Source: Patescibacteria group bacterium (GTDB taxonomy: Bacteria; Patescibacteriota; Minisyncoccia; Minisyncoccales; JAHCRE01). Taken from it: DNA of 52,442 nucleotides. The position numbers and the translations under genes are program-made. The DNA lies in NCBI GenBank assembly GCA_020148055.1, contig JAHCRF010000003.1, forward strand, positions 1 through 52,442. Direction: 5' to 3'. Each line of letters begins with the position of its first letter. Position 1 is the first letter of the stretch. The notes beneath the pieces were generated by a model. The model did no database searches. It was not told the origin of the DNA and saw nothing but the letters and a program-made list of their open reading frames with translations. Shown one piece after another: positions 3,258 to 42,481 of this stretch.

Positions 3258-4460
3258 CCAATCTAAAATGTCTTTGTTGGCCACTTTCTCGAATATTTCT
3301 TCAACAGAAAAACTTTTTTTTTGCCTTTTTTCTTTTTGCTTTTGACAAACTTGATAAAAATCTAAGACCCGGTCAGTCACTCTACTCCAGGAATATTTTC
3401 TGGCTTCTTTTCGACCCCACTTTCCCATTTCTTTTCTCAAATTTCCATTTTTAATTAAAATTTCTAATTTTTTAGCCAAATCTTTATAATTTTTAGGCCT
3501 GGCTAAAAATTTCTCATTTCTCTTCCCTTTTAAAAGTGCTTTATAACCTCGATTGGCAAAGGCTACTACTGGCAATTCGCAGGCCATTCCCTCAAGCAAA
3601 ACTATTCCAAAGCTTTCTCCGTAAATAGAAGGAGCGCAAAAAATATCAGAGCTCGTAAAATAAGAAACGAGCTCTTTTCCAATTTTTTCCCCCTCAAAAT
3701 AAACTTCTTTTAAATTGCGATTTTTAATGAAAGCTTGACACTCAGTTTTTAGCTCCCCTTCCCCAATAATAATTAATCTCAAATTGGGAAATTTTTTAGT
3801 TAAAATTTGATAAGCCCGAAGTAAATAAATCAAACCTTTTCTTTCTTCGATTCTACCAACAAATAGGATGTTAATTTTCTCATCAGAAAATTTTTTAATT
3901 TTTGGAGTTCGAGGATTAAATCTTTTAAGATCTACGCCGTTGGGAATAACGGTTTTTGGTAGATTGCATTTTTTAAAAACATTGAGAGCTATAGGAGAAA
4001 CGCCTATTATTCCATCAATTTTCCATTGAACAATTTTATCCAGAATATAGAGAAAAATAGGAAACTCTTTCAAAAATTCACTCCTACCAACATCAGAATG
4101 AAAAGTCAAAATATTTAAAGCTTTGGATCTCTCTAAAATCTGAAAAGAAGAGGGAAAACCAAAGTTATGAAAATGTAAAATATCGAATTTTTCTTTTTTA
4201 AATGTGTTTTCAATTGCTAAAGGATTAAAATTTACAGAAAAATCCGATCTACCCCCACCAAAAGGAAGAGAAAAAGAAGTACCCAACAAGATTACCTCTT
4301 TTCCATAATTTTCTTCAGTCTGGCTTCTGGGGACGATAATCTTTAATTGATAACCTCTCTTTTTAAATTCTTTACGCAATCCTAAAACATGAGTCCTTAC
4401 CCCTCCTGGTTTTAAAAAAGAATGTAAAGAAATTAAACCGATTTTTGGAAGTTTTCCCAT
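3249..4460 (-). CDS. Glycosyltransferase, GT4 family
   Basis: The ORF track starts at a TTG (4550) that would overlap dnaB. The first ATG is at 4460 (MGKLPKIGLISLHSF). ESFGIVLLEGMACELPVV (E-x7-E) motif and GT-B fold pattern. Confidence 0.85.
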   Translation of the reverse strand: MGKLPKIGLISLHSFLKPGGVRTHVLGLRKEFKKRGYQLKIIVPRSQTEENYGKEVILLGTSFSLPFGGGRSDFSVNFNPLAIENTFKKEKFDILHFHNFGFPSSFQILERSKALNILTFHSDVGRSEFLKEFPIFLYILDKIVQWKIDGIIGVSPIALNVFKKCNLPKTVIPNGVDLKRFNPRTPKIKKFSDEKINILFVGRIEERKGLIYLLRAYQILTKKFPNLRLIIIGEGELKTECQAFIKNRNLKEVYFEGEKIGKELVSYFTSSDIFCAPSIYGESFGIVLLEGMACELPVVAFANRGYKALLKGKRNEKFLARPKNYKDLAKKLEILIKNGNLRKEMGKWGRKEARKYSWSRVTDRVLDFYQVCQKQKEKRQKKSFSVEEIFEKVANKDILDWLR

Positions 4461-9269: not shown

Positions 9270-11899
9270 ACTTCTTTTCTAACTATAAAATGCCATTTGG
9301 TAGCCTCAATTAAAATTATTTCGCTTACTCCTAAAGCCAAAATAATTAGCCAATCACTAATTCTCAAGGGTACTGTCTTTAAAAGAGTTTGAAATACAGG
9401 TAAATAAAGAGCTAAAATGAGCATCAAAAGGCCAATGCCAACAGCACCTACCAGAGGTTTATTTGAGAAGGGATTAATATGCCAAATATTTCTTCTTAAA
9501 CTCTTACAGGAAAAAACATAAAAAAGTGAATCTATTGTCAAACAAGCAAAAATCATTGTCCTAACATAACTAATGTCATGATTTTTTTGCCAGAGCCAGA
9601 AAAATAAGCCCAAAAGTATCAAATCAGTAATAAATCCAATAATAAAAATTATTACCTTCATCTCCTGAGTTAATAAAGGAACATCACGACTCTGGGGTTT
9701 TCTTTTCATTAAATCTTTTTCTTTTGGCTCAAAAGCCAAGGCAATATCGGGTAAACCATCTTCGATTAAATTCACCCACAAAATCTGGACAGCTGTAACA
9801 GGCAAAGGCACTCCAGCCACTATACTGACTCCAACCAAAATTACTTCAGTAAAACTATCAGATAATAAATAAGTTATAACTTTTCTAATATTATCAATAA
9901 TCGCTCTCCCTTCCTCAACTGCTGCCACAATGATATTAAAAGAATCGGGCAGTAAAATTAAATCTGAAACTTCTTTAGCAACATCAGTACCTGAACCCAA
10001 AGCTACTCCGATATCTGCTTTTTTAAGAGCTGGAGCATCGTTGATTCCGTCGCCGGTCATAGCTACCACTTCGCCTTTCTTTTGCCAGGCAGAAATAATT
10101 CTCATTTTGTGTTTTGGTTCAACCCGGGCGTAAATTTGGATTTTATCCAAAATTTTATCAAAGTCCTTGTCGGATATATTATCTAAATCTTTCCCCTCTA
10201 AAATGTTTTCCTCTTTAATTTTAAATCCTAATTCCTCAGCCACTGCTTTAGCTGTTAATTTATGATCGCCAGTAACAATAATAGGTTTCATTCCTGCTTG
10301 TCTGCAAACTTTCATTGCTTCTTTTACTTCTTTTCGAATTGGATCTTTTAGGGTAATAAAGCCGACAAAAATAAGATTATTTACTTCCTCTTCTAAACTT
10401 TTGACTTTTGACTTTTGACTTTTGACTTTTTTGTAAGCTGAAGCTACAACTCTTAATCCCTTTCTAGTTAATTCCTCTAATTTTTTTTCTAATCTTGCTT
10501 TTTCTTCTTTTAGGGCACAGATATCCAAAATTCTCTCTGGGGCACCACAAGCATAGAGAAAATTTTGACCCTTTTCGTCGTACAAAGCAACAGCAAATTT
10601 ATTTATTGGATTAAAAGGAATTTCAGCAATTTTTTTTCTTTCGAACTCTTTTTTTCTATCAACCCCCACACCAAAAATTTGGTGGTGGGGGTCAATCCCT
10701 GCTTCCATTCCCGCTTCCAATAGTGCTTTATCAGTTGGTCTTCCTCTCAAAATCCATTTTTCTTTTGGAGCTTGTGGATTTTCGATAAAGGCTTCAGATG
10801 TTAAAGTGGCAGCTTTTAGAGCTAAAAATTTATCTCCTATTACCTTACTTACTTTCATTTTTCCCTCAGTTAAAGTAGCAGTCTTATCTGTCGCAATCAC
10901 TGAAGTGCTACCTAAAGTTTCAGCAGCTACTAATTTTCTAACTAATCCTTTTCTTTTTAAAATTCTCTGCATTCCTAGGGCTAAAATCACGGTCATTGCT
11001 ACTGGCAACCCCTCAGGGATAGCAGCTACTGCTACTGCTACCGATGTTTCAAACATCTCCACAAATCTCTCTACTGTAATCCTGCCCTCTACTCTATATC
11101 CAGTGATTATCCCTTCAATAAAAATTCCAAAACAAATTATGGCAATAATTATTCCAACAATTTTTGAAAAACGGGCTAACTTTTTCTGATAAGGTGTTTT
11201 TTCTTCTCTTGTTTCCTTTAGCATTAGGGCTACTTTTCCCATCTCAGTTTTCAATCCGGTTTCAGTAACCATTGCTTTTGCCTTTCCATCTTCTACAATA
11301 GTGCCCATATAGACTAGATTGTCTCGATCGGCCATTGAGGTCTCTTTTGGTAAAACATCTGAATGTTTTTTAGCTGGCAGCCACTCACCAGTTAAAGCCA
11401 TTTCATTTGTTTTTAAATTCAAACTTTCAATAATTCTCCCATCAGCTGGAACTTTGTCTCCTGCGGCCAATGTAAAAATATCTCCGGGGACAAGATCTTG
11501 AGAACCTATAATTTTAGGATTTCCTTCTCTGATTACTTTAGCTTCTATTTCAACCACTTTTTTAAGTTTTCGCAAAGCTTGAGAAGCTTTATTTTCTTGA
11601 AAAAAACCAACGATCGTATTCAAAATCACTGCTCCAAAAATAACAATACTATCTGTGTATTTCCTAAAAAATAAAGTTACAATACTAGCAATCACTAAAA
11701 TATAAATCAAGGGGCTTCTAAATTGCTCAAAAAATATTTCTAATTTTGATAAAGGTTTTTCTTTGGGAAGTAAATTTTTGCCAAATTTTTCCTGTTTTTT
11801 CTTAATTTCTTTTTTCGATAAACCTTGTTCAGAATCTGAATTTAATTTTTTTACAACTTCCTGCCAAGATAAATTGTGCCAACTAATAGTTTGGTTCAT
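9266..11899 (-). CDS. Cation-transporting P-type ATPase (P2, Ca2+/Mg2+-type)
   Basis: 877 aa. Cation_ATPase_N-like start, TGE motif (LTGEW), phosphorylation motif read as DKTATLT (10888-10874), TGDHK, and the MTGDGINDAPALKKADIGVA hinge. The stop overlaps the start of the CaCA gene. Confidence 0.9.
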   Translation of the reverse strand: MNQTISWHNLSWQEVVKKLNSDSEQGLSKKEIKKKQEKFGKNLLPKEKPLSKLEIFFEQFRSPLIYILVIASIVTLFFRKYTDSIVIFGAVILNTIVGFFQENKASQALRKLKKVVEIEAKVIREGNPKIIGSQDLVPGDIFTLAAGDKVPADGRIIESLNLKTNEMALTGEWLPAKKHSDVLPKETSMADRDNLVYMGTIVEDGKAKAMVTETGLKTEMGKVALMLKETREEKTPYQKKLARFSKIVGIIIAIICFGIFIEGIITGYRVEGRITVERFVEMFETSVAVAVAAIPEGLPVAMTVILALGMQRILKRKGLVRKLVAAETLGSTSVIATDKTATLTEGKMKVSKVIGDKFLALKAATLTSEAFIENPQAPKEKWILRGRPTDKALLEAGMEAGIDPHHQIFGVGVDRKKEFERKKIAEIPFNPINKFAVALYDEKGQNFLYACGAPERILDICALKEEKARLEKKLEELTRKGLRVVASAYKKVKSQKSKVKSLEEEVNNLIFVGFITLKDPIRKEVKEAMKVCRQAGMKPIIVTGDHKLTAKAVAEELGFKIKEENILEGKDLDNISDKDFDKILDKIQIYARVEPKHKMRIISAWQKKGEVVAMTGDGINDAPALKKADIGVALGSGTDVAKEVSDLILLPDSFNIIVAAVEEGRAIIDNIRKVITYLLSDSFTEVILVGVSIVAGVPLPVTAVQILWVNLIEDGLPDIALAFEPKEKDLMKRKPQSRDVPLLTQEMKVIIFIIGFITDLILLGLFFWLWQKNHDISYVRTMIFACLTIDSLFYVFSCKSLRRNIWHINPFSNKPLVGAVGIGLLMLILALYLPVFQTLLKTVPLRISDWLIILALGVSEIILIEATKWHFIVRKEV
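10397..10430. repeat. Heptamer tandem repeat (acttttg x4 plus a partial copy) inside the ATPase CDS
   Basis: acttttg at 10397, 10404, 10411 and 10418, then actttttt. It encodes KKVKSQKSKVKS in a cytoplasmic-domain linker. Confidence 0.8.
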
Positions 11900-14566: not shown

Positions 14567-16312
14567 TCATTCATAATCGGGTGGTATTTGCCAGTAATCA
14601 ATAATATATTTTGCTAGTTCTCTAAAAATGGGGACAGCCGAATATTCAGCTGTTTTAGTATTGGGATTGTCGAGTTTTATCAAAATCAAAAATTGAGGAT
14701 AAGCTGGGGCAAATCCGACAAAAGTCTGAATTGTTTTTTCAGAGTAATCTCTTTTTTCAATCCCTAAGGCAGAAAACGGAATCTGGGCAGTTCCAGTTTT
14801 GCCGGCTATAAAATATCCTGGAATTTTAGCTGCTGTAGCAAAACCATTCTCGACTACACTGACCAACATTGCGGTTAATTGAGAGGAAGTCCTTCGTGAA
14901 ATAATAAAGTTTTCTGAAATTTCTGGATTAATCTCAATTTCTTTGCCACCCTCGATGATTTTTTCCACTAAATAAGGCTTAACCAATTTCCCACCATTGG
15001 CAATTGCACAAAAAGCCCTGACCAATTGAATAGGAGTTATGGCAATTCCTTGACCAAAAGAGGCAGTAGCGAAATTTATTTCATATCCTTTTTTAAATTC
15101 TAAATTTTCAGAAAAAACTTCCTCCTGTAAATCAATACCGGTCTTTTCAAAAAAGTTAAACTTTTCGAGATATTCTAAAAAAATTTTCGATCCAATCTGC
15201 TGCTGAACAAAGACTGCCCCGGTATTGATTGATTTTTCCAAGACCTCAGTCATTGTTTGTTCTCCATGCACTTTTTCACCATAATTATAGATAGGCCAAC
15301 CTCTGATTTCTACTATTCCTCTATCAATATAAGTGGTTTGGGGAGTAATTTTCTCTTGATCAAGAGCAGCAGCCATAGTAATAGGTTTAAAAACTGAACC
15401 CGGTTCAAACATTTTCTGAATTGCTGAATTTTGAAAAATTTCCATCTCAGCTTCCTCCTCAGCTTCTTCAAAATAGCAATTAGGATTGAAATTAGGAAAA
15501 TCGGCTAAGGCCAAAATTTTTCCTGAATGAGGGTCTGCTACAATAATTTGACCTTCCTCAATTTCAAATTGTTCTTTAGCCTGAACCAATAATTTTTCAG
15601 CTAAAAATTGAATATTGTAATCAATACTCAATAAAATATCAGCTCCTTTTTGAACTGGCGATAAATTTTCTGAATTCAAAAAAATCAAGGCTCCACCCAA
15701 ACCTCTTTTTCCTTCTAAAAATCCTTCCTCAGTTGTCAAAATCTCATCATAGAAACCTTCTATGCCATATTGACCCTTTCCTTCACCTCCTAAAAATCCA
15801 ATTACCTGAGAAAGGAAGCGCTCTTGAGGATAATATCTCAAAATCTCCTCTTTTAAGTAGATGCCAGCTAAATTTAATTTTTTAAAATTTTCAATTTCCT
15901 CTTCGGTTAATTTATGTTTAAGAACGGTAAAAAGACTCTCAGTATTTTTAATTTTTTCCAAAATTTCATCCTTATCTAAATTAAAAAGAGCTCCCAATTT
16001 CTCAGCAACCTCTTCTTTATTTTTGATTTCTCTTGGAGAACCGTAACAAAACTGCCAAGTTTTATTAATCGCTAAAGGAAATAAATCTCTTCTATCTTTT
16101 AAAAAAACTTTTCCCCTTTTTCCTTGAACCTGAACTAAAAGCTGTTGCTGCCCCTGAGCTAAGGCTTTATAAAGCTGCCGATTAAGAATTTGAAGATAAA
16201 TTAAGCGACCAATAATCGCCGCTCCGAATAAAAAGAGAAAGATTAAGATTAAATTTACCCGCCAAAATTTTGGTCCACAAAACTTAGGTGAGCTAATCCT
16301 GCAATTTTTCAT
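14567..16312 (-). CDS. ftsI: Peptidoglycan D,D-transpeptidase FtsI / class B PBP
   Basis: 581 aa. N-terminal TM helix, SVFK (SxxK), SIN (SxN) and KTGTA (KTG) motifs, in dcw context. Confidence 0.9.
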   Translation of the reverse strand: MKNCRISSPKFCGPKFWRVNLILIFLFLFGAAIIGRLIYLQILNRQLYKALAQGQQQLLVQVQGKRGKVFLKDRRDLFPLAINKTWQFCYGSPREIKNKEEVAEKLGALFNLDKDEILEKIKNTESLFTVLKHKLTEEEIENFKKLNLAGIYLKEEILRYYPQERFLSQVIGFLGGEGKGQYGIEGFYDEILTTEEGFLEGKRGLGGALIFLNSENLSPVQKGADILLSIDYNIQFLAEKLLVQAKEQFEIEEGQIIVADPHSGKILALADFPNFNPNCYFEEAEEEAEMEIFQNSAIQKMFEPGSVFKPITMAAALDQEKITPQTTYIDRGIVEIRGWPIYNYGEKVHGEQTMTEVLEKSINTGAVFVQQQIGSKIFLEYLEKFNFFEKTGIDLQEEVFSENLEFKKGYEINFATASFGQGIAITPIQLVRAFCAIANGGKLVKPYLVEKIIEGGKEIEINPEISENFIISRRTSSQLTAMLVSVVENGFATAAKIPGYFIAGKTGTAQIPFSALGIEKRDYSEKTIQTFVGFAPAYPQFLILIKLDNPNTKTAEYSAVPIFRELAKYIIDYWQIPPDYE

Positions 16313-16659: not shown

Positions 16660-17588
16660 GTTTTTTTGGCGGCTCTTAATTTTGCTGATCTTGAGCGAGG
16701 GTTAATTAATATTTCCTCTTTACTTGGTTTGATTAGTTTTTTAGTTAAAATTTTTAAAAGGCCTTTTCTTGAATTATCTCTTAAAAAATTTTTAGAAATT
16801 CTGTCTTCTAAAGAATGGAAAGAAATTATGACTAATCTTCCCTGGGGCTCTAAAATCTCCAAAGTCTGAGGCAAAGCTTTTTTAAAATTATTTAGTTCAT
16901 CATTGACAACAATTCTTAATGCCTGAAAAGTCTTTGTAGCAAAATGCCTGCGGGGAATTTTTTTCCTGTCCCGCACCGAACTTGTTCTGGTGCGGGGATA
17001 TCGATACCAAGCAGGAACTGCTTTTTTTATGATTTCTACTAATTGAAAGGTGGTTTCAATCTTTCTTATTTTTCTATTCTTAATAATTTCTTTAGCAATT
17101 TTTTTCGCAAATCTTTCTTCACCATATTCTCTTAAGATTTTTTCCAGTTTTTTTTCTGGATAATCATTTACAATTTCTTCCGCTGTCAAGATTTTTGATT
17201 TCACATTATATCTCATATCTAAAGGTTCATTTCTCAAAAAGCTAAATCCTCGACCACTTTCCTCTAAATGCCAGCTGGAGATTCCAAGATCAAACAAGAT
17301 TCCTTGAACTTTTTTAAAATTACATTTTTTAACGATCTTTTTTAAATTTGCAAAATTATCGCAAATAAGAATTGATCTTTTTTCGTATTTAGTATTTAGT
17401 ATTTTGTATTTAGGTATCTTTATTATTTCAAGGTTCCAATCAATACCAAGTACTTTTCCATGAGGTGCTATCTTTTCTAAAATTGCTAAGCTATGGCCAC
17501 CTTCCCCAGTTGTACAATCAATAAAATTTTGATTAGCTTTGGGCGCTAAATATTTTAGAACTTCTTTTTGTAAGACTGGGATATGCAT
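16656..17588 (-). CDS. rsmH: 16S rRNA (cytosine1402-N4)-methyltransferase RsmH (MraW)
   Basis: 310 aa. MHIPVLQKEVL start, DCTTGEGGHS SAM motif, FDLGISS, and SFHSLEDR. Confidence 0.95.
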   Translation of the reverse strand: MHIPVLQKEVLKYLAPKANQNFIDCTTGEGGHSLAILEKIAPHGKVLGIDWNLEIIKIPKYKILNTKYEKRSILICDNFANLKKIVKKCNFKKVQGILFDLGISSWHLEESGRGFSFLRNEPLDMRYNVKSKILTAEEIVNDYPEKKLEKILREYGEERFAKKIAKEIIKNRKIRKIETTFQLVEIIKKAVPAWYRYPRTRTSSVRDRKKIPRRHFATKTFQALRIVVNDELNNFKKALPQTLEILEPQGRLVIISFHSLEDRISKNFLRDNSRKGLLKILTKKLIKPSKEEILINPRSRSAKLRAAKKT

Positions 17589-17591
17589 ATC

Positions 17592-17682
17592 ACTTGGACC
17601 CCTTTTTCAGAAAAAGGTGTCCAACCGCCAAAAATATAAGGTGTCAAATTGCCCGGGACCTTATAACCCGTGGCAATTTGAC
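17592..17682 (-). ncRNA. Conserved structured intergenic element, copy A (between mraZ and rsmH)
   Basis: Its reverse complement is near-identical to 41122-41212. Transcript-sense reading: GTCAAATTGCCACGGGTTATAAGGTCCCGGGCAATTTGACACCTTATATTTTTGGCGGTTGGACACCTTTTTCTGAAAAAGGGGTCCAAGT. It forms two long hairpins and ends 3 nt before the rsmH ATG. Confidence 0.5.
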
Positions 17683-17693
17683 TGATTTATATT

Positions 17694-18125
17694 TTATACG
17701 CCTAACTCCTTTAGTCTTTCTGCCATATCCCCTATTTCTTTCTCTGTTTTTTCTCTATATTTTTGCCATTTCTTTTCATCCCAAATTTCTATTCTATTGG
17801 AAAGCCCAAGTAAAACTATATTCTTTTTTAAAAGGGCATATTTTTTTAAGTATTCAGGAATTAAAATTCGGCCTGATTTATCTAAATCAACATCGCAGGC
17901 TCCTGCTAACATAATTCTGGCAAAACCTCGAGCATCTAATCGGCTGGCTGGCAGCTTACTTAGTTTCTCAGACATTATTCCCCACTCTTTTAAAGGATAA
18001 ATAATTAGACAATTATCTAAACCCCTGGTAATTATTACCTTCTTTCCTAATTCTTTTCTGAATTTTGAAGGAAGAGCCAGTCTTTTTTTAGTATCTAATG
18101 TATAGCGATATTCACCAATGAACAT
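17694..18125 (-). CDS. mraZ: Transcriptional regulator MraZ
   Basis: 143 aa. MFIGEYRYTLDTKKRLALPSKFR start, two SpoVT/AbrB-like repeats, first gene of the dcw cluster. Confidence 0.95.
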   Translation of the reverse strand: MFIGEYRYTLDTKKRLALPSKFRKELGKKVIITRGLDNCLIIYPLKEWGIMSEKLSKLPASRLDARGFARIMLAGACDVDLDKSGRILIPEYLKKYALLKKNIVLLGLSNRIEIWDEKKWQKYREKTEKEIGDMAERLKELGV

Positions 18126-26332: not shown

Positions 26333-26459
26333 GAGGTAGAGTCAGCTTTCTGGCTTGTCCCATTTTGGGCATCACAGCTGCGGCCCAGCGCCTGATTTCC
26401 TGCCTACCGGCAGGCAGGTACAGGACTTTCCTGACCGTCCTAAAAATTTAGGCTACCTC
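26333..26459 (-). promoter_or_regulatory. Structured leader RNA, candidate cobalamin riboswitch (variant)
   Basis: GC-rich island with its own promoter. Closing helix GAGGTAG (26459-26453) / CTACCTC (26339-26333). Internal hairpins CCTAAA/TTTAGG and CCTGCCT/AGGCAGG. CCGCAGCTGTGA resembles the conserved CCGC-N-ACUGU core, and AAGCCAGAAAGCTGAC resembles the B12 box (AAGCC-GAAGACCUGCC in E. coli btuB). The downstream genes are DUF4430-type. Confidence 0.5.
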
Positions 26460-32572: not shown

Positions 32573-33031
32573 TTAAAAGCTCTTTGGTAAAACCCTAATT
32601 TTGATTGCCTCAAACTCCTCTGCTTGACTAATGTCCTGGTTAGAGACAACCTCAATATAATCACCTGTTTTAAGATCTTTGAAAGTTATTGAGGCTTCTT
32701 GGGGTGTTCTTCTATTTGGTTCAGTCTCGACAAAAGTTAAATGACTAAATTTTGTAAATGGGGTAACTATTACTTTTCTTATCTCAGTTTTTTGAATGGG
32801 CTGGCCAGTTTCATCTATTTGTATTATGGTTGCTTCTAAAACAAGAGAGTCTTTTAAAAATTCTATTTTTTCAATTGAGCCTGCCAGATTGTACAGAACT
32901 TTTGGCTGAGTAATTTCTGGAACCTCTGGAGAAATTTCTGCTTTCGGAGGAGCCTTTGGCTTAAGAACAAGAGTCAAAGCGATCAAGATAATAAAAATTA
33001 AAACCAGGCTAATAACAATAATTTTTTTCAT
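32573..33031 (-). CDS. Membrane-anchored hypothetical protein
   Basis: 152 aa with ATG start and an N-terminal TM helix. Its stop is 2 nt before the giant gene start, so the two are probably co-transcribed. Confidence 0.6.
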   Translation of the reverse strand: MKKIIVISLVLIFIILIALTLVLKPKAPPKAEISPEVPEITQPKVLYNLAGSIEKIEFLKDSLVLEATIIQIDETGQPIQKTEIRKVIVTPFTKFSHLTFVETEPNRRTPQEASITFKDLKTGDYIEVVSNQDISQAEEFEAIKIRVLPKSF

Positions 33032-33205
33032 ATTTTTATCTATTTAACGCCAATCTACCCTCCTTTAAATCTTTTAATTTTGGGGAGTAAATTAACATTA
33101 AAATGAAAGTTAAAACGATTTCTATACCTTTATAATAGTTTTAACTCTAACAAGAAGCTTGTCAAGGAAAATATAATACGGGCGCTAGAGAATTTGAACC
33201 CCTGT

Positions 33206-33226
33206 AAAAGGAGCTTAGCTCCTTTT
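33206..33226 (-). terminator. Palindromic hairpin downstream of the tRNA cluster (possible bidirectional terminator)
   Basis: aaaaggagc-tta-gctcctttt is a perfect 9-bp stem, but only 4 U follow. Confidence 0.4.
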
Positions 33227-33308
33227 ACGAAGAAAATTCTCGGGCGAAAAGTGGGCACTGTGAGATTCGAACTCACGACCTTTTTCACCCGCCTAAATTT
33301 GAGCGATA

Positions 33309-33382
33309 TGGGCGTGTGTGGACTTGAACCACAGACCTCTGCAATGTGAGTGCAACGCTCTAACCAACTGAGCTACACGCCC
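33309..33382 (-). tRNA. tRNA-Val (anticodon CAC)
   Basis: Minus strand GGGCGTGTAGCTCAGTTGGTTAGAGCGTTGCACTCACATTGCAGAGGTCTGTGGTTCAAGTCCACACACGCCCA is a canonical 74-nt cloverleaf with anticodon loop CUCACAU. No encoded CCA. Confidence 0.9.
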
Positions 33383-33415
33383 AAATTTTTGGCGGGCAAG
33401 TGTGAAACGAATGCG

Positions 33416-33458
33416 AGGGGCCCGCCTCTGGCGGGAGGGTGGTGGGAGGGTTGTAGTC
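33416..33458 (-). repeat. C-rich repeat family 3, copy X (inside the tRNA-like sequence)
   Basis: Minus strand GACTACAACCCTCCCACCACCCTCCCGCCAGAGGCGGGCCCCT. It shares GACTACAACCC-N-CCCACC with 40627 and 41984, and shares with 41984 the TCCC-hairpin-CCCCT architecture. Confidence 0.6.
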
Positions 33459-33525
33459 TAACCTCTGAGCTAAGTGCCCAATTTTACTTAACCCATTAAA
33501 ATATTATAATAAATAAAAGGGGAAG

Positions 33526-35514
33526 ATGCAAATATTTGAGCTACATTTTAATCCAAAGGCTGAAGAAGATCTAATTTTTGATAGTTTTTGTTATACGCCC
33601 GCAAATGTCTATGAAAAGAGGTTGGGAGGTTTGTATTTAGTTGGAGAGCTAAAAAATGCCCTACCCCAAAACTTTCGCCTTTTAGATAACTTAGCCAAAA
33701 TTATTAAAGGAAAATTTTATGGTTTCCCAGTTCAATCAATTGAGGAAAGTCTTAAAGAAAGTCTTAAGCGGGCTAATGAATTTTTGGAACAAGAAGTTAA
33801 AAAAGACAATACTAGTTGGTTGGGAAATTTGAATTTTGCTGTAATTTCTTTAAAAAACTTTAATTTAAACTTTACTAAATTTGGAGATCTAAAAATTTTA
33901 TTATTAAGGGAAGGTCAAATAGTTAACATTGGTAGGAGATTGGAGCTTCAAGAAATTGAACCTTACCCCTTAAAAGTATTTCTAAATGTTGTCTCTGGAA
34001 AATTATCAAGGGAAGATATTATTTTTATCTCCACAAAAGAGGTCTTTGATCTTTTTTCAAGAGAGAATTTAGTAGATGAGATAGCCCAAATTCCAGTTGA
34101 AGAAAAATTTTCTGAAAAAAAATTAAAAAAAATTCTAAAAAATAAAGAGAAAATCTTATCAGAAATCTCAGGAGTCTGTCTCTTAATTGTACTGAAACCT
34201 GAATTTTTACTAAAGCGGGCTTTAAGTTTTGAAAAAGAAGTTCCAGTTCTCCAAATCGGAAAAATTTTCAAACCCCTTGTTACTAAAATAACCACGTGGA
34301 AGTCTACCTTCCGCAATATATGGAAGTCTGCCATCTCCAGTAAGATAAGTAAAGAGAAATTAAAAATTTCTCCCAAAGTTTCTCCCCAGAAAATTTTAAA
34401 AAAACTCAGCATTTCCCCAAAAATTAAATTCTCTAAAGATTTTAAAAAGAAACTAATTTTAATTTTTGCTCTAATTTTTTTCCTTTTGTTGGGATTTTTT
34501 ATTTTTAAAAGGAGGAAAGAAGTTTCTTTAAGGGAAACTCAAAATATCTTTTCAGAAATTCAAGCAAAAATTAATTTGGCTGGAGATTTCTTAATCTTAA
34601 AAGATGAAGAAAAAGCCAATTCGATACTAAAGGAGGCTTGGGAAGAAATTTTACCTTTAATTGAAATTAAGCACCCTTTAAAAAATGAGATTCTGGCTTT
34701 AAAAGAATCAATTGAAGAAAATCTCCAAAATCTAAACAAATTAGAAAAAATTACTACACCTAAAATTTTATTTGAATTTTCAGAAAAGGAATTTTTGCCC
34801 CAAAAAATAGTAGGGCTTGACAAGGTCTTATATTTTTTTAATCCTTATTCTAAGGACCTCTACAAGTTTGAGGAGGGAGAAAAAATTAAAATAGAAACTA
34901 ATCAAAAATTTAATAAGGCTGTTCCTTTTGATAAAGATTCAATTTTATTCTTTTTGGAACCTGATAAGTTAATTTTTTTGAAAGAAGATCGATTTGGAGA
35001 AATTTTTTCTTTAAAATCTCCTTACCCGGATTTTAGCTGTAATGACTTATCGGTTTTTAGAAGAAATATTTATTTTTTAGATGAGAAGACAGGAGAAGTT
35101 ATAAGATATTCATCACCTTTGGAAACCTATAAAGATTTCCCAAAATTCTGGTTGAATCCTGAAACCAAAAAAGTCACCGATGCAAAATCAATAGCTATAG
35201 ACGGAAGTATCTGGATTTTAAATCGTGAAAACAATATTGATAGATTCTATCTTGGAGAATATCAGGAAACTTTGATTTTGGACTTCTTTCCTTACTCAAA
35301 AAACATCGAGAAAATTTTAATTAACCAAAACTTACCTTACCTCTTCCTTATGGAACCTGAACAATCGCGAATAATTATTTTAAATAAATCAGGTCAGATA
35401 ATTTCCCAATTTCAAAGTGAAAAATTTGACAATTTAAAAGATTTTGCCGTCTCTGAAGATGGTATAATTTATCTATTAAATGGCCTAAAAATTTATCAAA
35501 TTAAACTCCAATGA
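33526..35514 (+). CDS. Hypothetical membrane protein (N-terminal globular domain, central TM helix, C-terminal beta-rich domain)
   Basis: 662 aa with ATG start and AAAAGGGGAAG upstream. TM helix LILIFALIFFLLLGFFIF at about residue 310. No confident family assignment. The stop overlaps the next gene (ATGA). Confidence 0.7.
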   Translation: MQIFELHFNPKAEEDLIFDSFCYTPANVYEKRLGGLYLVGELKNALPQNFRLLDNLAKIIKGKFYGFPVQSIEESLKESLKRANEFLEQEVKKDNTSWLGNLNFAVISLKNFNLNFTKFGDLKILLLREGQIVNIGRRLELQEIEPYPLKVFLNVVSGKLSREDIIFISTKEVFDLFSRENLVDEIAQIPVEEKFSEKKLKKILKNKEKILSEISGVCLLIVLKPEFLLKRALSFEKEVPVLQIGKIFKPLVTKITTWKSTFRNIWKSAISSKISKEKLKISPKVSPQKILKKLSISPKIKFSKDFKKKLILIFALIFFLLLGFFIFKRRKEVSLRETQNIFSEIQAKINLAGDFLILKDEEKANSILKEAWEEILPLIEIKHPLKNEILALKESIEENLQNLNKLEKITTPKILFEFSEKEFLPQKIVGLDKVLYFFNPYSKDLYKFEEGEKIKIETNQKFNKAVPFDKDSILFFLEPDKLIFLKEDRFGEIFSLKSPYPDFSCNDLSVFRRNIYFLDEKTGEVIRYSSPLETYKDFPKFWLNPETKKVTDAKSIAIDGSIWILNRENNIDRFYLGEYQETLILDFFPYSKNIEKILINQNLPYLFLMEPEQSRIIILNKSGQIISQFQSEKFDNLKDFAVSEDGIIYLLNGLKIYQIKLQ

Positions 35515-40019: not shown

Positions 40020-41108
40020 ATGTTTTATCAGTGTCCAAAATGTAAAAAAACTTGGCAATATCCGATTGAAAAATGCCCGGATTGTTTTTTGAAGTTAGAG
40101 CGAGTATTTTCTGAAAAAATAAAAGTGGTTGCTGTCTCTCGAGTAAATATTCCTACCCCTTTACATCCGAAAATTCCCTATTTTGTTTTACTTTTGGAGG
40201 ATGACAAAGGAAGAAAATGGGTTCAAAAATCAGTAAAAGAATATAAAGCGGGCTCTGAATTTAAAATCGAATCAACCCAAGATAAAAATGCCGTAGCTAT
40301 CTGGCGAGTAAAATATGATGTTTTAGAAGCAATCGAAAAAGTAGTCAGCTTAATTGAAAAGATAAATCCCGCTGTAAAAACCTTAATTTTACCAACCCTG
40401 ATTGCTCCCCGTCATCCCTATTTTGCCCAAAATACCAGCCCTGAGGTTTTAAACCAACTAATTAAATTTCTAATCCAAAGGGGAGTAAAAAAAGAAAATA
40501 TCAAAGTTGCTGCCCAGAGCTTTAACGATTTTCCAATTACAGCTTCGGCTAAAAAATCAAAGTTTTTATCTGTTTGTGAAAAAAATAAAGTTCAAATTTT
40601 AGATCTTTCTCAAAAAGGTTTCAAAAGACTACAACCCACCCACCGCCCTTCAATCCCCCCCACCCACCCTAAAACAGAAAATTTTATTTTTGATGTTTCA
40701 GAAGAAGTTTTCAAAAACGATTTAATAATCAATTTGCCAATTTTAAAACTTGATAAAAAAATAGGAATAAGAGGAGCCTTAGAGAACCTAACCAGGTTTC
40801 TGAACAAAGAATCCTATTTGGGCTTGAAATATCTATACGGAGAGCAAAAGTTAATCCTTTCCCTCAAAGAGGTCTTACCCGAAATTCTAACTATAGCTGA
40901 TGCCATATCAATCCAAACACCAAACACTTTTACTGCCTTTTCCGGTCTGATTTTAGCCAGTTTCAATCCCTTGAATTTAGACCGAGTAATGGCTGAAGTG
41001 GCTTTGATTGATTTGCCAGAATATTTGAAATCTGTTAATCTAAATAAAATCAAGATTGTCGGCAGAGAGATTGCTGAGGTCCAATATGATTTAAAAAGTA
41101 TGATTTAA
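40020..41108 (+). CDS. DUF35 (zinc ribbon + OB fold) - DUF362 fusion protein
   Basis: 362 aa. CPKC...CPDC ribbon followed by an OB-like segment (KVVAVSRVNIPTP...YFVLLLEDDKGRKW), as in thiolase-associated DUF35 proteins. The C-terminal roughly 250 aa are DUF362-like (KTLILPTLIAPRHPYFAQNTSPEVLNQLIKFL). Confidence 0.65.
   Translation: MFYQCPKCKKTWQYPIEKCPDCFLKLERVFSEKIKVVAVSRVNIPTPLHPKIPYFVLLLEDDKGRKWVQKSVKEYKAGSEFKIESTQDKNAVAIWRVKYDVLEAIEKVVSLIEKINPAVKTLILPTLIAPRHPYFAQNTSPEVLNQLIKFLIQRGVKKENIKVAAQSFNDFPITASAKKSKFLSVCEKNKVQILDLSQKGFKRLQPTHRPSIPPTHPKTENFIFDVSEEVFKNDLIINLPILKLDKKIGIRGALENLTRFLNKESYLGLKYLYGEQKLILSLKEVLPEILTIADAISIQTPNTFTAFSGLILASFNPLNLDRVMAEVALIDLPEYLKSVNLNKIKIVGREIAEVQYDLKSMI
40627..40670 (+). 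repeat. C-rich repeat family 3, copy Y (in-frame inside the DUF362 part)
   Basis: gactacaacccacccaccgcccttcaatcccccccacccaccct encodes RLQPTHRPSIPPTHP. It is a sharp GC/C island in an AT-rich gene. Confidence 0.6.
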
Positions 41109-41121
41109 AAAATTAAAAATA

Positions 41122-41212
41122 GTCGCGAAGCCACGGGTTATAAGGTCCCGGGCGAGCGACACCTTTAAGTTTTTAGCGGTTGGACACCTTTTTCTGAAAA
41201 AGGGGTCCAAGT
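41122..41212 (+). ncRNA. Conserved structured intergenic element, copy B (upstream of fabG)
   Basis: GTCGCGAAGCCACGGGTTATAAGGTCCCGGGCGAGCGACACCTTTAAGTTTTTAGCGGTTGGACACCTTTTTCTGAAAAAGGGGTCCAAGT. Same architecture as copy A with compensatory changes in the basal stem. It ends 6 nt before the fabG ATG. Confidence 0.5.
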
Positions 41213-41218
41213 AGAATT

Positions 41219-41962
41219 ATGTATAACTTCAAAAACAAAGTAGTCCTAATTACCGGCGCTGCCCAAGGAATAGGAAAGGCGATTTCTCTAAAATTTGCCT
41301 CATTTGGAGCAAAATTGGCTCTAAATGACATTTTTACTCAGGAAGAAAATCTAAAAAAAGTGATTTCAGAAATCGGAGAAAAAAGTGAAGCACGCTATTT
41401 TTTAGCCGATGTTTCCAAATTAGAGGAGGTGAAAAAAATGATTCAAGATATTAAAAAAGAATTTGGCAGATTAGATGTTTTGGTCAATAATGCTGGAATC
41501 ATCCGGGATAGAACCTTAGCTAAAATGACAAAAGAAGAATGGCAGAAAGTTATTGATGTTGATTTAACCGGGATTTTCAACTGCTCCAAAACGGCCCTAC
41601 CTCTTCTTGTTCCAAATCAGGGGAAAATTATTAATATCTCCTCGGTTGTTGGTCAAAGAGGAAATTTTGGTCAGACAAATTATGCTGCAGCAAAAGCTGG
41701 AGTAATTGGCTTCACTAAAGCCCTGAGCAAAGAGGTGGGAAGATTTGGAGTGAGGGTCAACGCCATCGCGCCCGGTTTCATTGAAACAAAAATGGCTGAA
41801 GGAGTTCCTGATAAAATGAAAACTATAATCAAACAACTAACTTCTCTCGGTAGATTTGGAAAACCAGAAGAGGTTGCTAATGCTGTAATATTTTTAGCCT
41901 CAGATGAAGCCAGCTTTATTACCGGCGCAATTCTGAATCTTGATGGTGGATTGGCAATCTAA
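41219..41962 (+). CDS. fabG: 3-oxoacyl-(ACP/CoA) reductase, SDR family
   Basis: 247 aa. TGAAQGIG cofactor motif, NNAGI, catalytic S...YAAAK, and a typical FabG C-terminus (ITGAILNLDGGLAI). Confidence 0.9.
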   Translation: MYNFKNKVVLITGAAQGIGKAISLKFASFGAKLALNDIFTQEENLKKVISEIGEKSEARYFLADVSKLEEVKKMIQDIKKEFGRLDVLVNNAGIIRDRTLAKMTKEEWQKVIDVDLTGIFNCSKTALPLLVPNQGKIINISSVVGQRGNFGQTNYAAAKAGVIGFTKALSKEVGRFGVRVNAIAPGFIETKMAEGVPDKMKTIIKQLTSLGRFGKPEEVANAVIFLASDEASFITGAILNLDGGLAI

Positions 41963-41974
41963 TCTTTTTTAAAA

Positions 41975-42481
41975 ATGAATAAAGACTACAACCCACCCAC
42001 CACATCCTCCCCGAGCAAACTCGGGGCCCCTGAAATAAAAAAGATTATTCCTTATGATGATCCTTTTTTATTTGTGGATGGAGTAGAAGAAATTGGTGAA
42101 AATTTTATCATAGGTCACAAACAAACAAAGCCTGAAGATTATTTCTTTAAGGGCCATTTTGTTGATTTCCCAATAATGCCAGGGGTTTTAGTTGTTGAAG
42201 CAATTGCCCAGCTTTCGAGTATTTTATTACGTCGAAAAATTGGCAAAGACCACCAAAAAAAACATATCTTAGCCTACCAGGTTAAAAATGCCTCTTTTTA
42301 CAAACCAATTTTTCCAGGAGATAAAATCATTTTAAAGGCAAAAGTTTTAAATATTATTGATGAAAAAATCTCCAAAATTTTAGGCTCAGCTCTTGTTGGT
42401 AATGAGCCAAAATGTGAAGTAAGATTTATTTGCGCTATCATTGATAAAAAGGAATTTGAAGAAAAATACAGAAGTAAGTGA
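41975..42481 (+). CDS. fabZ: 3-hydroxyacyl-(ACP/CoA) dehydratase FabZ
   Basis: 168 aa. PYDDPFLFVD and HFVDFPIMPGVLVVEAIAQ hot-dog motifs. It has an unusual N-terminal extension of about 20 aa that contains repeat copy Z. Confidence 0.85.
   Translation: MNKDYNPPTTSSPSKLGAPEIKKIIPYDDPFLFVDGVEEIGENFIIGHKQTKPEDYFFKGHFVDFPIMPGVLVVEAIAQLSSILLRRKIGKDHQKKHILAYQVKNASFYKPIFPGDKIILKAKVLNIIDEKISKILGSALVGNEPKCEVRFICAIIDKKEFEEKYRSK
41984..42031 (+). repeat. C-rich repeat family 3, copy Z (at the fabZ 5' end)
   Basis: gactacaacccacccaccacatcctccccgagcaaactcggggcccct with internal hairpin ccccgag/ctcgggg. It is read in a different frame (DYNPPTTSSPSKLGAP) from copy Y. Confidence 0.6.

Follow-up and report, generated by a model that had tools for sequence, protein, structure and literature searches.

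A tRNA-Val(CAC) gene nested within the remains of another, and the recurrent inverted-repeat cassettes that carry tRNA genes in Patescibacteria

A contig of a Patescibacteria group bacterium (GenBank assembly GCA_020148055.1, contig JAHCRF010000003.1) carries an intact transfer RNA (tRNA) gene for valine, anticodon CAC, between the separated halves of a second tRNA. The stretch analysed, 52,442 nucleotides (nt) in length, is called the window; positions refer to it, and the features of the locus lie on its minus strand. The inner tRNA-Val(CAC) is called by ARAGORN and matches the Rfam family RF00005 over the full model (70 bits, E 2.5e-13; gathering score 29). It forms a cloverleaf with a 7-nt anticodon loop and is presumably a working gene. 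The acceptor strands of the outer tRNA, GGGCACT and AGTGCCC, are complementary at 7/7 positions despite their separation. The inner tRNA is flanked by the helix CCCGCCAAAAATTT / AAATTTAGGCGGG, and the predicted fold of the locus retains the inner cloverleaf, this arm helix and the outer acceptor pairing. An earlier note on this DNA, made from the letters alone, had described the intact tRNA, the tRNA-like halves that start at 33479 and end at 33252 (with a perfect T-arm), the hairpin CCCGCC-AGA-GGCGGG and the flanking helix. All of these are present as described.

The outer tRNA is divided into three pieces, A, B and C, by two insertions (Table 1). Insertion 1 is a C-rich segment with a hairpin and splits the D-stem. 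Insertion 2 is a cassette without an open reading frame (ORF), and its site in the outer tRNA is T38-G39. Piece C contains AAA, the variable loop AGGTC, the T-arm GTGAG-TTCGAAT-CTCAC, the acceptor 3' strand and the discriminator A. Compared with the junction rule described below, it is short of 2 nt (CG). A separate Logan contig from a marine-sediment metagenome (depth 22) matches 32900-33588 with one difference. Because this independent contig reproduces the region, the arrangement is not an assembly artefact. A consensus scan found a candidate promoter 5' of the outer 5' half, and no promoter-like site between that half and the inner tRNA. A further tRNA-like fragment, AGGGGTTCAAATTCTCTAGCGCCCG, lies beyond the 3' end of the outer tRNA. 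It is preceded by the hairpin GTAAAAGGAGCTAAGCTCCTTTTAC and is similar to the 3' ends of the outer tRNAs in L034 and L151 (labels of the form Lxxx denote loci drawn from the genome collection). Its letters suggest, with some uncertainty, that it may be a remnant of a still older tRNA copy.

Table 1. Features of the nested tRNA locus and copies of the repeat found in insertion 1 (window positions unless a locus label is given).
Feature	Position	Strand	Content or basis
Candidate sigma-70-like promoter TTTGCA-18 nt-TATAAT	33503..33532	-	Consensus scan, 10/12 matches; 5' of outer 5' half
Outer tRNA-Val(CAC) piece A, GGGCACTTAGCTCAGAGGTTAGA	33457..33479	-	Acceptor 5' strand GGGCACT, D-stem 5' strand, D-loop, D-stem 3' bases GA
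Insertion 1, 42-nt C-rich segment and hairpin CCCGCC-AGA-GGCGGG	33415..33456	-	Interrupts D-stem between GA and GC
Hairpin CCCGCC-AGA-GGCGGG of insertion 1	33436-33422	-	Sequence
Outer tRNA-Val(CAC) piece B, GCATTCGTTTCACA	33401..33414	-	GC (D-stem remainder), A26, anticodon-stem 5' strand TTCGT, loop TT-CAC-A
Insertion 2, 117-nt cassette	33284..33400	-	CTTG, arm, tRNA-Val(CAC), spacer TATCGCTC, arm, TGAA
Cassette 5' part CTTG-CCCGCC-AA-AAATTT	33400-33383	-	Sequence
Inner tRNA-Val(CAC)	33309..33382	-	ARAGORN, Rfam RF00005
Cassette 3' part TATCGCTC-AAATTT-A-GGCGGG-TGAA	33308-33284	-	Sequence
Outer tRNA-Val(CAC) piece C, AAAGGTCGTGAGTTCGAATCTCACAGTGCCCA	33252..33283	-	AAA remnant of anticodon-stem 3' strand through discriminator A
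T-arm and acceptor 3'-strand-like fragment AGGGGTTCAAATTCTCTAGCGCCCG	33179..33203	-	Read from sequence
Repeat copy in dead tRNA	33458-33413	-	Insertion 1
Repeat copy	40627-40675	+	In frame within ORF 40020-41108, encodes RLQPTHRPSIPPTHPKT
Repeat copy	41981-42032	+	Just past stop of dehydrogenase-like ORF 41219-41962
Repeat copy	L001 3105-3149		Related sequence

The identity of the outer tRNA is revealed by synteny. A tRNA-Val(CAC) adjoins the gene for a 662-amino-acid (aa) protein in 23/32 related loci, and the acceptor stem GGGCACT/AGTGCCC of the outer halves is matched exactly by the syntenic tRNA-Val(CAC) of L004, L011, L020 and L031. Within piece B, TTCGTTTCACA matches the L004 anticodon arm at every position. 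When both insertions are removed, the outer composite and the tRNA-Val(CAC) of L004 and L020 can be aligned along their length, with one gap of 2 nt. When the missing CG is restored as well, ARAGORN calls a clean Val(CAC). Judged by these alignments, the outer tRNA is the ancestral syntenic tRNA-Val(CAC), now a pseudogene. In the nearest genome of the collection, L001, whose adjacent 662-aa protein is 80% identical, the syntenic tRNA-Val(CAC) at 3590-3660 on the minus strand is a third sequence type (GGACGGT...). This suggests, as far as the sequences tell, a high turnover of tRNAs at this locus. After the L001 gene comes CCCGCC-TTCGCCAAAGCTTCG-GCGGG-CAAG, a hairpin similar to the arms except that AAATTT is missing.

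The outer halves had previously been numbered as canonical positions 1-38 with a CCC (glycine-type) anticodon loop. In fact, ARAGORN does call Gly(CCC) when 33441-33291 is deleted in silico. The D-stem of this join contains a mismatch, its anticodon stem an A.G mismatch, and its variable loop is 9 nt long; GGGTG of the conserved cassette arm is taken as tRNA sequence. The Gly(CCC) identity was rejected, because the supposed anticodon arm CAACC-CUCCCAC belongs to the dispersed repeat of insertion 1 (33456-33415). The true anticodon arm, TTCGT-TTCACA, occupies 33410-33401 within piece B (33414-33401). The proposed pairing of CACCC with GGGTG is likewise not a tRNA feature, since GGGTG is part of the cassette arm GGCGGGTGAA. 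As encoded, the outer halves yield no tRNA with the intron option of ARAGORN (-i, 0-300 nt; default and 90% thresholds), and lowering the threshold to 80% on the native sequence gives spurious calls only. An Rfam search of 33100-33560 at E<=10 returned only the inner tRNA and chance-level matches, with no truncated tRNA halves. The halves therefore do not score as one split tRNA. An exact search of the genome collection for the outer 5' half returned no match.

Insertion 2 is one member of a large family. The genome collection was searched with the pattern CCCGCC-N(1-2)-AAATTT-N(65-95)-AAATTT-N-GGCGGG, in which the arm sequence and the interior length are fixed. More than 119 loci were found, nearly all in Patescibacteria and distributed over many classes, where by our own estimate about 0.3 matches would be expected by chance. 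The family counts that follow refer to 118 arm pairs among the matches listed. A tRNA called by ARAGORN is enclosed by 28 of the 118 pairs (Val, Met, Glu, Pro, Arg, Leu, Ala and Ile), and unrelated AT-rich sequence by the other 90. These 90 interiors had no tRNA similarity when searched by nhmmer with a tRNA profile and are hence not recognisable decayed tRNAs. The interiors are hypervariable; 70/118 are singletons, including copies from one genome. The arms CCCGCC-N-AAATTT and AAATTT-N-GGCGGG extend to CTT and AAG, and the elements are mostly intergenic. Viral contigs scanned for the arm pattern gave no match, so a phage origin is without support. Tandem arrays of two or three arm pairs without a tRNA were observed in L073 (2543-2760), L146 (1161-1420) and L115 (5342-6268). 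In L073 the units are spaced by the direct repeat CTTG, in the form CTTG[X]CTTG[X]CTTG.

A counterpart of the window cassette is present in L024, a distant relative. The 18-mer CAAATTTAGGCGGGTGAA has nine matches in the genome collection; the six Patescibacterial ones, with the L024 contig among them, are all beside or inside tRNA genes. The L024 cassette is homologous to that of the window (84% identity overall; flanks 16/18 and 23/25), and the two share the spacer TATYGCYC and a related tRNA. The non-coding flanks of the cassette are about 91% identical, whereas the neighbouring protein is only 48% identical. The L024 cassette sits in the D-loop of a different tRNA-Val, at another position than in the window, and the entire 3' half of that outer tRNA has been lost to the start of an ORF. 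A nest with divergent arms (TTCA-CCCCG... / ...CGGGG) is seen around a tRNA-Val(CAC) in L025 (3560-3900, minus strand), so the family is broader than the searched pattern.

The tRNA-bearing cassettes share a pattern of nesting. Wherever a flank could be read, it shows remains of a tRNA of the isotype of the inner gene and in its orientation, and the outer copies that could be rebuilt all have the anticodon of the inner tRNA. Local-alignment scores favour co-orientation in 24 of the 28; the remaining four differ by 1-5 score units, and the flanks of three of these (L047, L102 and L128) read as co-oriented. The junctions follow a common rule at more than ten loci: a TG in a tRNA loop becomes CTTG-[arm...arm]-TGAA or, on the other strand, CA becomes TTCA-[...]-CAAG. 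The site is in the D-loop in L024, L047 and L070. It is in the anticodon loop of tRNA-Pro in L044, L057 and L086, of tRNA-Val in L034, L050, L109, L117, L128, L151 and L152, of tRNA-Met in L142, of tRNA-Glu in L130 and of tRNA-Ala in L099. The cassette is found in both orientations relative to the tRNA. Reversing the rule restores an ARAGORN-callable tRNA with the inner anticodon in L050, L083, L099, L109, L142, L151 and L152, and the outer copy of L102, which has a D-loop insertion, is callable with the inner anticodon once joined. The other outer copies, 19/29 with that of the window included, are not callable after rebuilding and are decayed, truncated or re-invaded. Nesting can go further. 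In L083 (2351-2565), a tRNA-Met cassette lies within a tRNA-Met that is itself within a second arm pair. Three levels of tRNA-Val in L109 (4640-4900) and of tRNA-Leu in L075 (2250-2600) are seen with partial deletions, and such deletions account for outer halves that do not match each other in L037 and L050. Compared with the loci as a whole, the flanks of tRNA-bearing cassettes have a 4.6-fold higher density of GC-rich hairpins.

We consider it probable that the locus in the window is a serially overwritten tRNA-Val(CAC) gene, in which an inserted cassette carried a replacement tRNA of the same isotype. Replacement at the DNA level is favoured because no single RNA excision can undo the junction, the outer copy has the same anticodon and is redundant, and its decay is visible. 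This is close to two readings offered in the earlier note, namely a tRNA gene disrupted by a small mobile insertion and a decayed tRNA pseudogene. Both are essentially right: the outer gene was broken by two small repeats, and the copy is uncallable as encoded, with 2 nt gone.

A third reading of the same note, an intron or split tRNA, does not agree with these features. In such a system, the arm helix would serve as an RNA processing signal, the inner tRNA would be released, and the outer halves would be ligated, or kept together, as a functional Gly(CCC) or Val(CAC). Several observations are in keeping with this. In the predicted fold, a continuous helix formed by the arms places the outer halves next to each other; pairing of the outer acceptor strands is preserved, and a glycine tRNA is called after the deletion in silico. 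Several outer copies elsewhere are nearly intact, and every insertion site is in a tRNA loop, which is also true of archaeal introns. The intron-containing, split and tri-split tRNAs of archaea (Nanoarchaeum, Caldivirga) resemble the present loci in their separated halves, in the paired ends of the intervening sequence and in the use of several loop positions. The intervening sequence of archaeal tRNA introns may also hold a functional RNA. However, the archaeal systems use a bulge-helix-bulge, and no such motif (two 3-nt bulges 4 base pairs (bp) apart) can be read from the junction sequences here. In one orientation the junction forms a continuous helix (U-A, U.G, G.U and six G-C pairs), and in the other a 2x2 internal loop. 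As both cassette orientations occur, the RNA structure at the junction is not conserved. The host is a bacterium, and the outer halves decay.

Excision itself is a difficulty of the intron model. A single excision would leave 2-4 extra nt at more than ten junctions. Because CT and AA flank the retained TG on opposite sides, no single RNA excision restores the 7-nt loop, and excision of the cassette cannot yield a canonical tRNA. In the window, the outer copy would need two excisions and would still be short of 2 nt. Its glycine version borrows bases of the cassette arm and of the dispersed repeat. Furthermore, the embedded tRNA is the same isoacceptor wherever the outer copy was rebuilt, so that the outer copy is redundant; truncation or an abundance of hairpins is seen in many outer copies; and both ARAGORN in intron mode and Rfam are silent on the native sequence. 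We therefore regard splicing or trans-joining of the outer halves as very improbable. Group I introns are also known to interrupt bacterial tRNAs in or near the anticodon loop (bioRxiv 10.1101/2020.01.27.920355). Here, the inserts of 117 and 42 nt are too short for the catalytic core (P3-P9), cassettes also use D-loop sites, and Rfam returned no Intron_gpI match in 33100-33560 at E<=10.

Conventional elements with an integrase, by integrating and excising repeatedly at a tRNA gene, might also leave tRNA fragments as debris, as might a local duplication or rearrangement; the inverted repeats would then be unrelated hairpins or terminators. Integration at tRNA genes is a classical phenomenon, and prokaryotic genomes commonly contain fragments of tRNA genes (PMC9897764). 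GC-rich hairpins are common in these genomes. In L025, the last 20 nt of the inner tRNA (TTCAAATCCTGTACCACCCA) are directly repeated about 180 nt downstream, similar to an attachment site, with GC-rich hairpins in between. Integrative elements such as phages and islands are alike in targeting tRNA genes, in restoring tRNA function and in leaving fragments behind. However, they carry the displaced 3' segment of the tRNA, whereas the cassette brings a whole tRNA. The cassette breaks the D-loop or the anticodon loop, is 117 nt long and has no integrase, and the old gene persists as complementary halves around the new one, not as duplicated 3' ends. The window locus has no integrase gene nearby, no island of kilobase scale and no direct repeat of the tRNA 3' end. 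At more than 20 tRNA loci, spread over many classes of the phylum, both the 13-17-nt arms and the junction rule are repeated, and the sites taken by homologous cassettes are not the same. The inner copy is not a local duplication, since its sequence departs from that of the outer tRNA (e.g., GGGCGTG versus GGGCACT). An origin from such debris is accordingly improbable.

A different possibility is that arms and cargo arrived separately. In this two-step route, the palindrome CTTG-CCCGCC-N-AAATTT-N-GGCGGG-TGAA would enter a tRNA loop, its broken centre would later capture about 60-115 nt of DNA or cDNA, and those captures that restore the tRNA would survive. The two arms, when joined, form a perfect palindrome that shares one AAATTT, and the duplicated AAATTT could be a 6-bp target duplication. 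Empty versions are indeed known: one in L121, CCCGCCAAAATTT-TTAGG-AAATTTTGGCGGG, and another in the window at 10663-10691. Variable interiors of similar length would suit captured filler, as would a cargo tRNA trimmed almost exactly to the tRNA body, without CCA. Against this, the cassettes of the window and L024 share arms, spacer and a related tRNA at different targets, which speaks for movement of the whole cassette. Cells at the intermediate stage would have lost their single copy of the tRNA gene and would not survive. We consider the two-step route unlikely.

Under the preferred explanation, gene replacement by a cassette at the DNA level, the following course of events can be proposed. 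An ancestral tRNA-Val(CAC) in conserved synteny upstream of the 662-aa ORF would have been hit at T38-G39 by the 117-nt cassette, which supplied a complete, co-oriented tRNA-Val(CAC). After this insertion, the 42-nt repeat would have entered the D-stem of the outer halves, and 2 nt of their anticodon stem would have been lost. The inner tRNA would most likely be transcribed from the ancestral promoter within a long precursor, because the only promoter-like site precedes the outer 5' half. RNase P and a 3' processing nuclease would then free it, and the arm helix would prolong its acceptor stem. More generally, the elements appear to favour TG/CA dinucleotides where tRNA genes encode loops. If tRNA genes are single-copy in these small genomes, as we assume, insertion would be lethal unless the element provides the same tRNA in the transcribed orientation. 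Only matched replacements would survive, so that survivorship may underlie the isotype match. The element would then be indispensable, and the cycle could be repeated to give Russian-doll loci. Movement of the cassette as a unit is favoured, because the window and L024 cassettes share spacer and arms at different sites.

A number of observations weigh against this explanation. Clustering of about 1,200 neighbouring ORFs showed that only housekeeping families recur, with no candidate transposase, recombinase or integrase among them. Among the matches listed, tRNA-bearing cassettes were not found at neutral sites between genes. Random insertion followed by selection alone would not predict this, and some cargo- or homology-dependent targeting may be involved. 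No presence/absence polymorphism or excision product was seen in the assembled contigs. The junction has no classical target-site duplication and fits no transposition chemistry that we considered, and the hypervariable interiors are unlike miniature transposons, which amplify as near-identical copies. That the inner tRNA is expressed and the outer copy silent is what we infer, and neither the window locus nor L099 was present in the metatranscriptomes searched. The inner tRNA-Val(CAC) is taken to be the sole copy of the genome, the sequence examined being the 52-kb window.

The way in which cassettes might move was also considered. The conversion of L-TG-R into L-CTTG[X]TGAA-R could not be produced by a 2-bp target duplication, by a dinucleotide crossover of a serine recombinase, by an overlap heteroduplex of a tyrosine recombinase, by IS200/IS605-type insertion 3' of a tetranucleotide or by IS91-type targeting of CTTG. 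A candidate mover would be a recombinase that acts at the 13-8-13 site AAATTTNGGCGGG-TGAACTTG-CCCGCCNAAATTT (34 bp) of a circularised cassette; the predicted circle or excision junction would read ...AAATTTAGGCGGGTGAA joined directly to CTTGCCCGCCNAAATTT.... Alternatively, an RNA- or single-strand-mediated route could operate, with the cargo tRNA directing where the cassette inserts. Such guidance by the cargo would account for the finding that no tRNA-bearing cassette was seen outside a matching tRNA gene.

Among known mobile repeats, the cassettes are most readily compared with miniature inverted-repeat transposable elements (MITEs), Correia elements, REPINs and Rickettsia palindromic elements. 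These are likewise about 100 nt long, non-coding and dispersed across genomes. Shared features are conserved inverted repeats of 13-17 nt, a mostly intergenic location with occasional copies inside genes, and the lack of an adjacent or internal transposase. The cassettes thus have the terminal inverted repeats, small size and lack of coding capacity of a MITE. However, MITE-type copies are near-identical, whereas the cassette interior varies even within one genome, a subset of cassettes carries a complete tRNA, and the junction replaces a 2-nt target (TG at tRNA sites) with no duplication of fixed length. Some copies without a tRNA are flanked by direct repeats of 3-5 bp (CTGTG, TATG, CTTG, TTA) and others by none. 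With 70/118 singletons and no transposase enriched nearby, amplification of near-identical copies from an autonomous element is not seen. We know of no cognate autonomous element or enzyme for the cassettes. It is a tentative and rather doubtful proposal that they are unrecognised selfish elements specific to the candidate phyla radiation, which lack a promoter, target TG/CA sites in the loop-coding stretches of tRNA genes, overwrite a gene of the same isoacceptor, make themselves essential (gene-replacement addiction) and are moved by an undescribed enzyme or mechanism.

Insertion 1 is a different repeat. Two further related copies occur in the window and one in L001 (Table 1), and other contigs of metagenome run X1 match only about 33416-33459, with unrelated flanks. 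Because of these additional copies and of the contigs that match this segment alone, it is considered a separate dispersed repeat. The repeat of about 45-50 nt has the layout GACTACAACCC[A/T]CCCACC...CCTCCC, a GC hairpin and then GGGCCCCT, and its G-rich strand contains the G-quadruplex-type motif GGGAGGGTGGTGGGAGGG (33434-33451, plus strand).

Other repeats were observed in the window. A repeat of about 107 nt occurs twice in inverted orientation, at 17592-17698 and 41106-41212, with two 48-nt arms that are complementary at 94% and 79%. Each copy lies directly 5' of a gene start and includes the hairpin GGACACCTTTTTCTGAAAAAGGGGTCC; no Rfam match was obtained at the gathering threshold. At 16258-16300, a solo cassette arm CCCGCCAAAATTT is followed about 10 nt downstream by a degenerate partner, AAAACTTAGGTGAG; it may represent an empty arm-family element that has decayed. 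GC-rich palindromes stand out in the AT-rich genome at 10663-10691, 16970-16996 and 26399-26418. The first, CCCCCACACC-AAAAATTT-GGTGGTGGGGG, is centred on AAATTT like the cassette and has different arms. The palindrome CCCGCACCGAACTTGTTCTGGTGCGGG resembles a hairpin within the dead tRNA-Arg of L047, and CCTGCCTACCGGCAGGCAGG is identical to a hairpin within the dead tRNA-Arg of L070. This suggests that families of hairpin repeats may be common to distant members of the phylum. The neighbours of the nested locus are the 662-aa protein, which has no Pfam hits, a FakA/DegV-like protein, a thiolase-like protein and a 2016-aa Laminin_G_3 protein.

A full-text search of the literature found neither nested tRNAs nor this repeat described for Patescibacteria, which is no proof of absence. 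The cassette is a small non-autonomous repeat, and there is a substantial chance that it represents a new kind of gene-replacing selfish element. The replacement model predicts circle junctions, presence/absence alleles and the detection of the inner tRNA alone by tRNA sequencing. If the model holds, split-looking tRNA halves and additional pseudo-tRNAs in these genomes should not be annotated as introns or new isoacceptors. The cassette would then be a minimal element that persists by replacing an essential gene; its junction signature is precise and unusual, and no enzyme is known for it. A syntenic locus could have a foreign working tRNA, which would concern both tRNA evolution and horizontal transfer. 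In that case, the tRNA genes of the candidate phyla radiation would not be static; they would be overwritten repeatedly by tiny imported cassettes, leaving nested fossils behind.

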